Shown here in pieces: positions 2,750 to 9,145 of a stretch of 56,328 nucleotides of DNA; the stretch's first letter is position 1, and every line of letters starts with the position of its first letter. A program made the translations under genes and the position numbers. A model generated the notes under the pieces. The model was not told the origin of the DNA. It made no database searches and worked only from the letters and a program-made list of their open reading frames with translations. Source of the DNA: a virus (taxonomy: Duplodnaviria; Caudoviricetes); IMG/VR virus record IMGVR_UViG_3300008448_000099, positions 1-56,328 of that record; one strand, written 5' to 3'.

Positions 2750-4653
2750 TGGCTCAAAAAGATTGGCCTGGTGGCTACATACGACCCGTTCCCGTAGACC
2801 CCGCTGGCCCCTATCAAGACGGAGCAGCTCCCGGTGTATGGACACTAGACCAAGTAGCGTATTGGCTGAAGCAGGGGCTGTGGCCGATTGCAGGAAATGC
2901 TACGCCGATTGGGTTGTTTGGTGGCGGATCAACAGGAACAGCAACAAATACAATAGATAAGATAGTTATTACTTCAGTTGGAAACGCCACAGATTATGGA
3001 GATTTGAATGGAGCTAGAGACAGATTAGCAAGTTGCTCCTCGTCCACTCGTGCGGTTTGGGGGGCAGGAATTAGTGGTGCCGGAACTAGACAAAACAATA
3101 TGTCTTATTCTGCATTTGCAACGCTTGGAAACACTTCACTTTTTGGAAATTTAAGTCAATCAAAATACAGTTTAACTGCCGCATCGAATGCAATTAGGGG
3201 GGTGTTTGCTGGTGGTTTTACAACAGTTGTTTTAAACGTTATTGACTATATCACCATCCCATCCACAGGCAATGCAATTGATTTTGGGGATTTATTAGCT
3301 GCTAATTATGTTTTGGCGGGTGCGTCATCATCAACTAGGGCATTGTTTGCCGGCGGATACACCACGGTATTCACTAACGTTATTCAATACATTACGATTG
3401 CCTCGACCGGAAACGCAATTGATTTTGGTGATTTAGCGGTAAGTCCAAATAGTGCTACTGGCCAAGGTGTGGCGTCAGAAACCAGAGCCGTTTTTGCAAG
3501 TAGTGCTGCTGGTGGCGATAACACAATGCAGTATGTCACCATAGCTACCACAGGAAATTCAACTGATTTTGGTGACTTAATTGAGCCTGTAGAGGCTATG
3601 GCTGCCTGTGCGTCATCCACTCGTGGCGTATTCGCAGGGGGATATTCAGCAAACACTTCTGCTGTCACCAATGTAATTCAGTACATCACCATTGCATCTT
3701 TAGGTAACGCTACGGATTTTGGTGATTTGACGGTAGCTCGATCTGGACTTGCTGGATGTTCATCTGGGGCTGACGCAGTTCAATCCACGCCAACGAGTTC
3801 TGGAATGATGTTGCTATTTGGTGGAAACACAAGTGCAGGAGGCGCTCAGGCATCAATCCAATATATTAACATTGCGACAACTGGTAATTCCCCAATGTTT
3901 GGCCAGTGCTTGTTTGCAAGGGATCGGTCTGGAGGATTGGCATCAAGCACTCGCGGAGTGGTTGCAGGAGGAAACTCTCCCAACACCAATGTTATTGAGT
4001 ACATAGAGTTTTCAACCTTTGGTTTGACCACAGACTTTGGCGACCTAACGACCATTACAAGCCAGAATGCAGGTTGTGGCTCATCTACCCGCGGTGTTTT
4101 TGCTGGCGGTCTTGCGGTAAGCAATGTAATCCAATATGTCACAATTGCAAGCGCCGGAAACGCTACGGACTTTGGTGATCTTACGGTTGCACGAACCGAG
4201 CTTGCATCGTGTTCATCACCTACAGTTGGGGTTTGGGGGGGTGGATTTACCACAGTTAGGGTCAACACAATTGACTATGTGACAATTGCTTCGACCGGCA
4301 ATGCAACCGATTTTGGCGATCTTACGGCAAACACAAATGAACTTGCGGCCTGTTCATCTGCAACAAGAGGTCTGTTTGCTGGCGGATCAACAGGAACAGC
4401 ACAAAACGTAATTAGTTACATAACCATTGCTTCTGCTAGCGACTCCACAGATTTTGGAGACTTAACGTTAGCAAGAAGGCAGGTAACCGGTTCCTCCTCA
4501 TCAACAAGGGGGGTCTTTGCCGCAGGTCTTGGTCGCTCTAATGTCATTGACTATGTGACCATCGCATCGACCGGAGACGCTGTTGACTTTGGTGATATGG
4601 CAACGGAAACCACAGGCGTTGCAAGCTGTTCAAACGCTAATGGTGGTCTATAA
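2749..4653 (+). CDS. Virion protein with two tandem kelch-like beta-propeller repeat blocks
   Basis: About 12 copies of the same 'TIASTGNATDFGDL' repeat. Coupled to the previous gene by TAATG. Confidence 0.75.
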   Translation: MAQKDWPGGYIRPVPVDPAGPYQDGAAPGVWTLDQVAYWLKQGLWPIAGNATPIGLFGGGSTGTATNTIDKIVITSVGNATDYGDLNGARDRLASCSSSTRAVWGAGISGAGTRQNNMSYSAFATLGNTSLFGNLSQSKYSLTAASNAIRGVFAGGFTTVVLNVIDYITIPSTGNAIDFGDLLAANYVLAGASSSTRALFAGGYTTVFTNVIQYITIASTGNAIDFGDLAVSPNSATGQGVASETRAVFASSAAGGDNTMQYVTIATTGNSTDFGDLIEPVEAMAACASSTRGVFAGGYSANTSAVTNVIQYITIASLGNATDFGDLTVARSGLAGCSSGADAVQSTPTSSGMMLLFGGNTSAGGAQASIQYINIATTGNSPMFGQCLFARDRSGGLASSTRGVVAGGNSPNTNVIEYIEFSTFGLTTDFGDLTTITSQNAGCGSSTRGVFAGGLAVSNVIQYVTIASAGNATDFGDLTVARTELASCSSPTVGVWGGGFTTVRVNTIDYVTIASTGNATDFGDLTANTNELAACSSATRGLFAGGSTGTAQNVISYITIASASDSTDFGDLTLARRQVTGSSSSTRGVFAAGLGRSNVIDYVTIASTGDAVDFGDMATETTGVASCSNANGGL

Positions 4654-6599: not shown

Positions 6600-6866
6600 A
6601 TGGAATGGCAGACGGTCATCAATATTGGCGGTGGTTCGCTATTGGCTGCCCTTGGGTGGTTTGCTAGAGAGATCTGGGACGCCGTGAAAGAACTTCGTCG
6701 AGATATTCACCGTCTTGAGAGAGACTTGCCTGAGGTTTATGCCCGTAAAGATGAGATGCGCGAGTCTTTCAAGGATGTCAAAACCGATATGAATCATGGG
6801 TTTCACAAGATAGAAACCATGATTGGTCAGTTGTTTGACAGGCTAAACGGGAAAGTAGACAAATAA
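6600..6866 (+). CDS. Small membrane protein with N-terminal TM and coiled coil (lysis cassette, holin/antiholin-like)
   Basis: Hydrophobic 'INIGGGSLLAALGWFA' followed by a charged helix. Lies upstream of the endolysin. Confidence 0.55.
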   Translation: MEWQTVINIGGGSLLAALGWFAREIWDAVKELRRDIHRLERDLPEVYARKDEMRESFKDVKTDMNHGFHKIETMIGQLFDRLNGKVDK

Positions 6867-6943
6867 TGGGCTTTTGGACGTTTGTTTTCTTGGGCGTCCT
6901 GATACTGATGATTGCATTAGCCGCATTCATATGGGGGTTGTGA
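6866..6943 (+). CDS. 25-aa single-TM micropeptide MGFWTFVFLGVLILMIALAAFIWGL (not in ORF track)
   Basis: Translationally coupled on both sides (TAATG at 6864-6868, TGATG at 6941-6945) and exactly fills the gap. Confidence 0.65.
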   Translation: MGFWTFVFLGVLILMIALAAFIWGL

Positions 6944-7281
6944 TGGAAAAAAGCGCAAAAGAACTAGCAAGTAAGGTCATTGGGGTTATTGGTATCCCGG
7001 CAATCGTTCTCATGGTCGGCATGGTGATCTATTCAGCGATGAAGCTCACTTCCGAAGCCCTAACCCCGATCGTTGGTATGGCTTCAGGTGTCATCATGGC
7101 TCTAATTTCGATGATTGCAGGCATTACCGGCACCAAAGACAAGGAAGAGAAGCCTGAATTCCAAGTAATTAAAGACCTCATTCAGCGCCTAGACCAAAAA
7201 GAGGCCCCAATGCGGGTCGATGTTGAGAATGGCCGCGTAACCGTCCATAAGGGCGATGACACCGTAATCACAAGGGGCTGA
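6943..7281 (+). CDS. Two-TM membrane protein (lysis cassette)
   Basis: Two hydrophobic helices. The start is more likely ATG 6943 than TTG 6874. Confidence 0.6.
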   Translation: MEKSAKELASKVIGVIGIPAIVLMVGMVIYSAMKLTSEALTPIVGMASGVIMALISMIAGITGTKDKEEKPEFQVIKDLIQRLDQKEAPMRVDVENGRVTVHKGDDTVITRG

Positions 7282-7282
7282 C

Positions 7283-7768
7283 ATGATCACCTTACTTTCC
7301 ACCCTAGTGTCGTTTTTGGCTGGCGGTCTTCCCAAAATCCTCAATTTCATGCAGGATCGGTCAGATAAGGCGCATGAGATGTCCTTGGCTCAACTCCAAC
7401 TAGAGCGGGAACTAAAGCTCTTGGAGGCCGGATACGCCGCTCAGATGCGGATGGAAGAGATTCGTACCGATCAGATAGCCATGCAGACCGCGGTTCAGGA
7501 GCGGGAAGCCCTGTACGCCCACGATGTGGCCATTGGTCAAGGAGCCTCTCAACTAATCATCAACCTTCGAGCATCGGTGCGTCCGGTCATCACCTACGGA
7601 ATGTTCCTGATGTTGGTGGCGGTCAATGTTTTTGGTGCCTACTATGCCTGGTACATGGGAGTGCCCTTTGATCAGGCTTTGGACATCCTGTGGGATGAGG
7701 ATTCAGCCATAGTCTTTTCATCAATCATTGCTTTCTGGTTTGGGACGCAGGCTTTTGGGAAGCGATGA
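7283..7768 (+). CDS. Putative holin
   Basis: N-terminal hydrophobic segment, a coiled coil, then 'LRASVRPVITY' + TM ... 'IIAFWFG' and a basic C-terminus. Overlaps the endolysin start. Confidence 0.65.
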   Translation: MITLLSTLVSFLAGGLPKILNFMQDRSDKAHEMSLAQLQLERELKLLEAGYAAQMRMEEIRTDQIAMQTAVQEREALYAHDVAIGQGASQLIINLRASVRPVITYGMFLMLVAVNVFGAYYAWYMGVPFDQALDILWDEDSAIVFSSIIAFWFGTQAFGKR

Positions 7769-8253
7769 AAACCTCAGCCAAGGCGATCGAAATGATCAAG
7801 CACCATGAGGGGGTCAGATTTCGCCCCTACAGGTGCCCTGCCTTGCTTTGGACAACGGCTGTCGGCCATGTAATTGACCCCTCGCATATTGGAGTCAAAC
7901 TTGAAGACCGTAAAAACCTACCCATCCCGCCGGGTTGGGATCGAACCCTCACTATGGATGAGGTTGACCAGATTCTTGCTCAGGATTTGGCGAGGTTTGA
8001 GGCAGGGGTACTCCGACTATGTCCTTCTGGGCTTAATCAGTCTAGGTTTGATGCACTCGTTAGCGCGAGTTTCAACTTTGGTCTAGGTAACCTTCAAAGA
8101 AGTTCGATTCGGATGCGTCACAACAGGGGTCAGTTTCAGGATGCCGCAGACGCATTTATGATGTGGACTAAGGCCGGCGGGAAAGAATTGCCGGGTTTGG
8201 TGCGCCGCCGAAAGGATGAGCGGGCACTCTATTTAAGCGGAGGTGCGACATGA
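7765..8253 (+). CDS. Endolysin, GH24 (T4/P1 Lyz-type) muramidase
   Basis: Catalytic E-x8-C-x5-T ('HEGVRFRPYRCPALLWT'), plus 'FDALVS..FN.G' and 'GLVRRR..E'. No SAR or signal sequence. Confidence 0.92.
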   Translation: MKTSAKAIEMIKHHEGVRFRPYRCPALLWTTAVGHVIDPSHIGVKLEDRKNLPIPPGWDRTLTMDEVDQILAQDLARFEAGVLRLCPSGLNQSRFDALVSASFNFGLGNLQRSSIRMRHNRGQFQDAADAFMMWTKAGGKELPGLVRRRKDERALYLSGGAT

Positions 8254-8330
8254 AAAAGATCGTAGCCAAGATTAAAGAGTTTTTTGCCTCTTTGAAGGCC
8301 AAAATTCAATCGTTGTTTAAAAAAAAATAG
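8250..8330 (+). CDS. 26-aa cationic amphipathic peptide MKKIVAKIKEFFASLKAKIQSLFKKK (not in ORF track)
   Basis: GGAGG RBS at 8239-8243, ATGA overlap with the endolysin stop, TAG at 8328-8330. Confidence 0.75.
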   Translation: MKKIVAKIKEFFASLKAKIQSLFKKK

Positions 8331-8339
8331 GAGGCTCAG

Positions 8340-8507
8340 ATGGCAGAAGTATGGGAAAAAGACCGGCCAAAAAGCCTAGGAAAGCCCAAGTCGCTAAGCC
8401 CAAACCAAAAACGGGCAGCAAAAGCGTTTGCAAAAAAGACAGGGACTAAGTACCCATCCTTGGTGGCTAATATGGCTGGAGCCAAGGCTAAGAAAGGGAA
8501 GTGGTAA
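8340..8507 (+). CDS. 55-aa Lys-rich small protein (not in ORF track)
   Basis: GGAGG RBS. Translates as MAEVWEKDRPKSLGKPKSLSPNQKRAAKAFAKKTGTKYPSLVANMAGAKAKKGKW, with TAATG coupling to the next gene. Confidence 0.75.
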   Translation: MAEVWEKDRPKSLGKPKSLSPNQKRAAKAFAKKTGTKYPSLVANMAGAKAKKGKW

Positions 8508-9145
8508 TGCCAACCGCCGCCGTCATGACTTATAACTCTTTGGTGGACGATATTTCGTCTTACCTAGAGCGAACCGACCAAGCCACCCTAGACAAGATCC
8601 CAACCTTCATCATGTTGGCTGAGCAGGTTATTGCCTCAGAAATCAAGTTTTTGGGCAATCTGACGGTTCAGCAGAGCACGATGGTGGCGACCCAACCGGT
8701 CATCGACAAGCCCGCCCGGTGGCATAAGACGGTCTCCATGAATGTGGTCGTGGCCGGTGAGCGTCAGCCTGTCCTGCTTCGCAAGTATGAGTACCTTCGG
8801 GAGTATTGGCCTGATGCTACTCAAACGGATGTCCCCAAATTTTATTGTGACTATGACTATACCCATTGGTTGGTAGCTCCGACCCCGGCGTCTGCCTATA
8901 CCTTTGAGGTGCTCTACTATGAGCGGATTCAGCCCCTAGATTCCTCAAATCAGACCAATTGGTTCACGATTTACGCACCCCAGGCGCTCCTGTACGGGAC
9001 TCTGTTGCAGGCCATGCCTTTCCTTAAAAACGATGACCGCACCCCGATGTGGCAGGCTCAGTACGACAAGATCATCAATACCTTGAAGGCTGAAGACGTT
9101 ACCCGGATCGCAGATCGTCAAGCTACTGTATTGGATTCACAATGA
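8507..9145 (+). CDS. Putative head-tail adaptor / tail tubular protein
   Basis: Helical N- and C-termini flanking a beta region ('WLVAPTP..YTFEVLYY', 'ALLYGTL'). Lies in the tail block. Confidence 0.55.
   Translation: MPTAAVMTYNSLVDDISSYLERTDQATLDKIPTFIMLAEQVIASEIKFLGNLTVQQSTMVATQPVIDKPARWHKTVSMNVVVAGERQPVLLRKYEYLREYWPDATQTDVPKFYCDYDYTHWLVAPTPASAYTFEVLYYERIQPLDSSNQTNWFTIYAPQALLYGTLLQAMPFLKNDDRTPMWQAQYDKIINTLKAEDVTRIADRQATVLDSQ

Follow-up and report, generated by a model that had tools for sequence, protein, structure and literature searches.

About 13 to 15% of phages with Gram-negative hosts are reported to have no recognizable spanin, and the only disruptin that we found experimentally established in the literature is gp28 of phage phiKT. 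As described by Holt et al. (bioRxiv 10.1101/515445), gp28 is a 56-residue protein of net charge +7 that is predicted to be helical, is membrane associated and found in both membranes, complements lambda Rz/Rz1 amber mutants, and has minimum inhibitory concentration (MIC) activity comparable to that of LL-37. The same authors report no homologues beyond one sister phage and expect unrelated disruptins in other spaninless phages. Here we describe a candidate of this kind in the IMG/VR record IMGVR_UViG_3300008448_000099, a complete phage genome of 56,328 bp (direct terminal repeats; completeness rated 100%) that was analyzed at its full length and is called the window below. The element in question is a short open reading frame (ORF) on the + strand, at positions 8250 to 8330, immediately after the endolysin gene. 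Its product probably has a lysis function tied to the endolysin, and, judging from sequence, we lean toward an outer-membrane disruptor that replaces spanins.

The ORF encodes MKKIVAKIKEFFASLKAKIQSLFKKK, a peptide of 26 residues with nine lysines and one glutamate (net charge +8) and with hydrophobic residues at positions 4, 5, 8, 11, 12, 15, 19, 22, and 23. Its start overlaps the stop of the endolysin ORF (7765 to 8253) through an ATGA at 8250 to 8253, and its TAG stop (8328 to 8330) extends into the GGAGG of the next gene. An earlier note on this DNA had placed the ORF behind the endolysin with an ATGA overlap and a GGAGG ribosome-binding site; these coordinates and the sequence proved correct, as did its residue counts and hydrophobic positions once the translation was rechecked. 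The same note called the product a clean amphipathic helix. The helix is amphipathic, with an Eisenberg hydrophobic moment (100 degrees) of 0.41 over its full length and 0.49 over residues 1 to 25, though just moderately above what composition predicts (4.1% and 1.3%, respectively, of 5,000 composition-preserving shuffles reached these values).

The longest stretch of the peptide free of D, E, K, and R is five residues, and no transmembrane (TM) segment was found: no 19-residue window reaches a Kyte-Doolittle value of 1.6, and lysines are spaced at most six residues apart. The peptide has no signal peptide and no cysteine, hence no lipobox, and it does not have the TM domain of a holin or antiholin. 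An 81-nucleotide (nt) gene falls under the usual minimum gene length of gene callers. No peptide form matched a PHROGs family. In Pfam, the L096-type and overprinted forms introduced below had no match, and the window peptide had just a subthreshold match to CAP18_C (PF12153, the lipopolysaccharide-binding domain of cathelicidin CAP18; 16.7 bits versus a cutoff of 20.5; E = 0.0071; residues 2 to 12 only). We note that a run of nine A residues at 8319 to 8327 encodes the terminal KKK; by eye, a +1 or −1 slip there would lead the product into other Lys/Arg-rich frames, and slippage is not required for the favored reading.

Like gp28, the window product is a small cationic peptide with a predicted amphipathic helix, no signal sequence, and no TM segment, encoded in the lysis cassette of a spaninless podophage by a gene that overlaps the end of the endolysin gene (by ATGA in the window and by 8 nt in phiKT, where gp28 follows the annotated endolysin gene as gp27/gp28). 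It differs in length (26 versus 56 residues) and charge (+8 versus +7), and its family also exists overprinted within an endolysin gene. In addition, the function of gp28 was shown experimentally, whereas the role of the window peptide is predicted from sequence.

Likenesses to Rz/Rz1 spanins are of another sort. In spanin-bearing relatives (locus L106 and phage KcrB), the spanin genes lie in the same slot, after the endolysin gene and before the genes for a basic protein and the adaptor; presumably, the same lysis step is served; and the peptide of other relatives lies out of frame (+1) within another lysis gene, as Rz1 does within Rz. Unlike Rz/Rz1, the peptide has no lipobox Cys, no N-terminal TM anchor, and no periplasm-spanning coiled coil. 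It therefore cannot carry out spanin-type membrane fusion, and its mechanism must differ.

The antimicrobial peptide-like C-terminal helices of Gram-negative phage endolysins (Pae87, phage JG004; PMC8972805) are likewise cationic, amphipathic, genetically tied to a peptidoglycan hydrolase, and, as that source describes them, thought to be surface acting. The window peptide, unlike those helices, is a separate polypeptide with its own start and ribosome-binding site, either free standing or in another frame. An out-of-frame lysis gene embedded in an endolysin gene has been reported for Staphylococcus phage 187 (1999; cited in PMC6023083). That product is described as a holin-like membrane protein of a Gram-positive phage, whereas the peptide is a predicted soluble cationic helix whose relatives infect Gram-negative hosts. 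Cathelicidin-type peptides (LL-37, CAP18) are similar in size class, charge, and amphipathic helix, and the CAP18_C match points the same way; as this match is below the gathering score and covers 11 residues, the likeness is one of composition and design rather than of demonstrated ancestry.

Conservation of the free-standing and overprinted forms

L300, a metagenome contig, aligns collinearly to the window for 1,342 nt with 136 differences (∼10% divergence). Seven of these differences fall in the peptide ORF, and all seven are at third codon positions (six synonymous, one L22F), which argues that the gene is under purifying selection. The substitution ratio of the ORF resembles that of the flanking genes, for which synonymous-to-nonsynonymous counts are 26:4 (endolysin), 16:5 (p55), and 32:4 (adaptor), and the 9-nt noncoding gap 3′ of the ORF is changed at 4/9 positions. 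When DNA contigs from four runs were mapped to the window, one contig was identical over 8019 to 8498, and among the differences listed, 8276 A>G, in two runs, lies in the peptide ORF and is synonymous. The ORF is very probably a real gene.

An orthologue, MKKLIEKIKALFQKLKQKIKSITIKAKK, with 50% identity to the window peptide is present in three contigs (L017, identical to L096; L018, identical to L097; and L092). It begins 16 nt after an endolysin gene whose product is 75% identical to that of the window and is preceded by its own GGAGGGG at the same distance as the GGAGG of the window. Differences between the window and the L096 orthologue are distributed 9/8/18 over first, second, and third codon positions. 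Among the remaining close homologues of the endolysin, most come from different phages and lack a peptide ORF of this kind.

The closest relatives of the window by adaptor identity (85 to 92%) carry a Peptidase_M15_3 endolysin (PF08291, E = 1.4e-19) in place of the GH24 enzyme. Within this M15 gene, starting at nt 38 and in the +1 frame, lies an ORF of 36 to 40 codons (MKNLLARIRQF..ALKTRLM.LKSKI...) that aligns without gaps from Met1 to the window peptide at 31 to 38% identity. It is intact in 10/10 distinct M15 endolysin genes of a clade with at least 86% identity and is absent from the 57 other distinct 5′ sequences (endolysins at most 77% identical), in which the +1 frame is mostly broken by stops. 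As a negative control, 17 distinct M15b endolysin genes contained no overprinted ORF, and both alternative frames were full of stops; thus, open alternative frames are no general property of these endolysin genes.

The proportion of synonymous differences (pS, Nei-Gojobori) in the M15 endolysin gene drops 3.6-fold exactly over the 25-residue helix, being 0.126 for codons 13 to 37 and 0.44, 0.49, and 0.46 for codons 1 to 12, 38 to 53, and 54 to 149, respectively. Codon 13 is also the exact start of the 25-codon window with the lowest pS, a value as low was reached by none of 20,000 random codon sets, and the nonsynonymous counterpart (pN) is not reduced over codons 13 to 37. A third codon position in the endolysin frame is a second position in the peptide frame; the dip therefore reflects purifying selection on peptide residues 1 to 25, and the tail is free to vary. 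A Shine-Dalgarno-like tcGGAGaac, 10 nt 5′ of the internal ATG, is invariant in nine distinct sequences in which adjacent codons vary. AlphaFold2, run on the 40-residue overprinted homologue with a 13-sequence alignment, predicted a single helix at residues 2 to 28 followed by a disordered tail, with predicted local distance difference test scores (pLDDT) of 87 and 93 for the first two 10-residue blocks (residues 1 to 20).

Across the three forms, the hydrophobic positions are kept (I/L4, V/I/L5, F/L11, L15, and I/L19), while polar positions vary; position 8 is I except for M in two overprinted variants, and position 22 is L except for I in the L096 form and F in L300. When 1.75 million six-frame residues were scanned without gaps (BLOSUM62), the orthologue scored 60 and the overprinted forms scored 39 to 53, with the best unrelated background at 33. 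A strict degenerate DNA pattern retrieved nine stretches from IMG/VR and a looser pattern retrieved 26, all 26 of them in the lysis cassette of this phage group (3 free standing and 23 overprinted). The looser pattern also retrieved 25 stretches from a metagenome collection, comprising L300, eight overprinted copies, 12 copies of an unrelated 31-residue ORF, and four other unrelated sequences.

A cationic peptide overprinted in an endolysin gene appears to be new; we found no printed case, in literature searches that were not designed to exclude one. We also observed that the overprint-bearing M15 clade (L163 to L176 and L088) has LGV within codons 24 to 27, where distant homologues mostly have NGW and a few have HGF or GGW. 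LGV in place of NGW may be a price that the enzyme pays for the second frame; such accommodation is speculation.

Several candidates were examined and set aside. The 31-residue ORF (MKKLLEQIK...; MKKLLEQIKTLTALFNWRINRAKIARLQSYR and variants) comes from 12 soil contigs and has bacterial neighbors and no endolysin at the 6 of 12 loci listed. At the same six, the neighbors differ and no obvious Shine-Dalgarno sequence is present; this ORF, whose 12 loci are L293 to L297, L301, L303, L305, L308, L309, L311, and L312, could represent a small repeated element or a toxin-like small gene. A 28-residue cationic ORF near the 3′ end of the M15 gene in L084, a locus close to the window by adaptor identity, was attributed to chance, as none occurs at that offset in 67 distinct M15 genes scanned. 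The window ORF is not the leftover 5′ end of an M15 endolysin gene (44% nucleotide identity to the overprinted ORF and, by eye, a stop in the corresponding frame), nor does it resemble the N terminus of the L106 i-spanin described below, of which it might have been a remnant.

The spanin slot and the function of the peptide

Sister phages were located through their SU10-type adaptor gene (80 loci, 79 to 92% identity). In the sister locus L106, identity to the window is 83% for the adaptor, 53% for the endolysin, and 30% for the phrog_6637 protein encoded upstream of the endolysin. The ORF that overlaps the endolysin stop of L106 by ATGA is a 159-residue Rz-like i-spanin (phrog_1327, E = 6.8e-12), in which a 77-residue Pro-rich lipoprotein with an LTAC lipobox is embedded. 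The same lipoprotein occurs in the same place in five further loci (L113, L115, L118, L147, and L161). In Caulobacter phage KcrB, the adaptor gene is directly preceded by an Rz-like ORF (phrog_1152, E = 3.7e-7), which a Cys- and Pro-rich ORF overlaps. In this phage group, the slot taken by the window peptide is thus that of the spanins, a synteny that the earlier note had proposed to examine. As for KcrB itself (L313), the ORF at 3180 to 3485 (+), which overlaps the Rz-like gp071c, is unannotated; with a Cys-containing hydrophobic N-terminal region and a Pro-rich body (phrog_2425, E = 7.9e-10), it looks like the missing o-spanin of that phage, in whose record all lysis genes are annotated as hypothetical proteins.

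Two lipobox scans, covering every ATG, GTG, and TTG start on both strands of the complete genome, returned no credible lipoprotein and no o- or u-spanin in the window, only out-of-frame ORFs inside large genes, bearing out the earlier remark that no lipobox-carrying spanin was seen in the cassette. The same scan recovered the o-spanin of a sister genome (G003) as a positive control. Nothing credible was found in G001, a 95% complete genome of the free-peptide type. Among the 56 adaptor loci with at least 1,500 nt upstream, 8 carry the peptide (2 free and 6 overprinted), 6 carry a spanin pair, none carries both, and 42 carry neither; lipobox flags at five other loci (L090, L098, L129, L151, and L156) represent TM segments or are unclear and were not counted.

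In the mechanism that we favor, the ORF would be a translated lysis-cassette gene, translationally coupled to the endolysin gene. The peptide would be made in the cytoplasm late in infection as a single amphipathic α-helix with neither signal peptide nor TM segment and would enter the periplasm alongside the endolysin once the holin opens the inner membrane. There, it would bind the anionic lipopolysaccharide or phospholipid surface of the outer membrane, as cationic antimicrobial peptides do, and weaken this membrane after the cell wall has been cut, taking over the Rz/Rz1 step of sister phages. The location, target membrane, and effect of the peptide are all points that we infer. A homologous helix is retained in relatives despite an endolysin swap, overprinted in that case in the new endolysin gene.

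Several observations weigh against this mechanism. Neither recognizable spanin nor peptide is present in 42/56 sister loci, so spanin absence alone is weak evidence that a substitute is needed, and none of the 72 loci with the closest endolysin homologues has a credible lipoprotein nearby. Phages of this habitat thus often manage with no outer-membrane disruptor that can be recognized, and the step might not require the peptide; such phages either use other, unrecognized devices or can dispense with it. G002, a 99% complete genome of the overprinted type, encodes one true lipoprotein on the opposite strand. This 89-residue protein (6618 to 6887, +, in the record of L082; canonical LLAGC lipobox; strand opposite the lysis cassette) has no C-terminal membrane anchor, which rules out a u-spanin; a role in exclusion or as a moron lipoprotein is possible. 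For the overprinted forms, the hydrophobic moment did not differ significantly from that of shuffled sequences (P = 0.07 to 0.37), although their hydrophobic positions are conserved, and only three distinct sequences (window, L300, and L096 type) represent the free-standing form. Searches for the peptide gave no match at E ≤ 10 in PDB chains (phmmer) or, with low-complexity filtering, in 50,697 phage records (tblastn). BLASTP likewise gave no alignment to gp28 at E ≤ 100; the earlier description of a shorter and probably unrelated counterpart is in keeping with this result, and the peptide is at most a functional analogue of gp28, not a homologue. Finally, the host is likely Gram-negative, a state that we infer from the hosts of relatives and the spanins of sister phages; the nearest cultured phages by portal and adaptor similarity infect Caulobacter (45 to 49% identity) and also Roseobacter and Pelagibacter.

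A membrane-active accessory to lysis, working at the cytoplasmic membrane or on the endolysin through depolarization, holin triggering, timing, or endolysin escort or activation, would account for the tight endolysin linkage of every form (ATGA in the window, a 16-nt spacer in L096, and a position inside the M15 gene in relatives). Synthesized in the cytoplasm with no signal peptide, such a product encounters the inner membrane before any other; gp28 itself is reported from both membranes, many relatives have no recognized outer-membrane disruptor, and small holin-level lysis factors are known, such as Lcc6 of LambdaSo, described as a small extra lysis factor acting at that level. A specific partner is unlikely, however, as the peptide occurs with three different holin-like genes and two unrelated endolysin folds; its holin-like partners are of the phrog_6637 type in the window and L096 and of GTA-holin-like types of 133 to 167 residues in L082, L083, and L088. 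Within the same holin and endolysin families, moreover, the peptide swaps only with the spanin pair, and no TM segment would hold it in the inner membrane. We regard an accessory role of this kind as unlikely.

It is quite improbable that the gene is real and has a job unrelated to lysis, such as that of a nucleic acid-binding peptide, a virion-internal basic peptide, or an anti-defense or host-takeover microprotein. The gene does sit at the border between lysis and structural genes, directly before a basic protein of net charge +12 and the adaptor, and Lys-rich peptides are able to bind DNA or RNA. However, conserved bulky hydrophobic residues at i and i+3/4 with varying polar positions fit membrane binding better than nucleic acid binding, the neighboring basic protein is present with or without the peptide and does not form a unit with it, and in relatives the peptide moved with the endolysin gene and not with structural genes. 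Still less probable is a nonfunctional ORF, open by chance in an 86-nt spacer and similar to the other forms through shared Lys-rich composition. The ORF is very short and has no protein family match beyond the subthreshold one to CAP18_C, yet its substitutions relative to L300 are confined to third positions while the 9-nt gap downstream is changed at four of its positions. It also has a strong Shine-Dalgarno sequence at optimal spacing that is conserved in the orthologue, it fills the spacer from end to end with a stop that overlaps the ribosome-binding site of the next gene, its homologue scores 20 raw units above background, and an overprinted homologue bears a dual-coding signature.

The remainder of the lysis cassette

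The genes upstream of the peptide in the cassette (6600 to 8253; Table 1) are all on the + strand and tightly packed, and neither a promoter-like site nor a + strand terminator-like site was detected between 6304 and 9600. The first product in this series had no lipobox in either scan. The micro-ORF that follows is joined to both neighbors by overlaps, of its start with the preceding stop (TAATG) and of its stop with the following start (TGATG). Relatives (L082, L085, L083, L096, and others) retain it at 48 to 56% identity, and it is probably a second unannotated microgene, encoding a single-pass membrane peptide. The phrog_6637 protein is 75% identical to its L096 counterpart and, judged by position alone, is the probable holin of the cassette. 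The endolysin is soluble, with no N-terminal hydrophobic or TM-like segment.

Table 1. Features of the lysis cassette of the window and its surroundings
Feature	Position	Strand	Details
88-residue protein, uncharged for 20 residues at the N terminus and charged and helical thereafter; no lipoprotein	6600..6866	+	phrog_7885, E = 2.3e-7; phrog_462, E = 3.1e-7
25-codon fully hydrophobic micro-ORF, MGFWTFVFLGVLILMIALAAFIWGL	6866-6943	+	Between the 88- and 112-residue protein genes
112-residue protein, putatively holin- or antiholin-like	6943..7281	+	TM-like segments 12-30 and 43-61; 91% identical to L096 counterpart
161-residue membrane protein	7283..7768	+	phrog_6637, E = 5.6e-19; hydrophobic at both ends, with TM-like segments 2-20 and 99-117; central coiled region
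GH24 (Phage_lysozyme) endolysin	7765..8253	+	PF00959, E = 1.9e-33; phrog_7, E = 1.2e-44
Shine-Dalgarno sequence GGAGG	8239..8243	+	6 nt upstream of the peptide-gene ATG
Cationic amphipathic peptide gene, candidate disruptin-like outer-membrane disruptor	8250..8330	+	26 codons, MKKIVAKIKEFFASLKAKIQSLFKKK
55-residue very basic protein, net charge +12	8340..8507	+	phrog_34011, E = 3.4e-10; 91% identical to L088 form
SU10-type head-to-tail adaptor	8507..9145	+	PF24175, E = 1.3e-26; followed by tail genes

The basic protein encoded before the adaptor exists in forms of 54 to 55 residues, as in the window, and of 130 to 135 residues (L096, 2600 to 3007; L106, 2615 to 3007). Because it is found in all three cassette types (L088, L096, and L106), with spanin or with peptide alike, it is not a spanin substitute. 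The lysis cassettes of the sister loci (L082 to L161) are highly mosaic, combining several holin-like genes and at least four endolysin types at adaptor identities of 79 to 92%. The endolysin types upstream of the adaptor comprise the GH24 type of the window, a second GH24 type, an M15_3 enzyme of 149 residues, and a 113-residue M15-like protein.

Implications for lysis in spaninless phages

A 2026 paper describes as still open whether spaninless phages encode disruptins and holds that disruptin diversity defeats systematic prediction. The window peptide would be a second disruptin candidate, unrelated to gp28 and much smaller; it appears to be a new variant beside gp28, and the overprinted form adds to its novelty. 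Spanin pair and peptide represent a clean natural swap on one conserved genomic backbone. The work also suggests a computational route by which such genes may be recognized, namely, a bias of substitutions in micro-ORFs toward third positions and local dips in the synonymous rate of endolysin genes. Lysis genes that are overprinted or shorter than 30 codons are invisible to standard annotation. A natural peptide of 26 residues, putatively selected to breach Gram-negative envelopes, is cheap to synthesize and test.

More tentatively, and with somewhat less confidence than in the disruptor role itself, we propose that these cationic helices of ∼25 residues are the smallest outer-membrane-disrupting lysis protein of a tailed phage, that they replace Rz/Rz1 in a widespread group of what are described as freshwater podophages, and that they persist in overprinted form after endolysin exchange. 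If this is true, one endolysin gene encodes both the wall-cutting and the outer-membrane-breaking functions.

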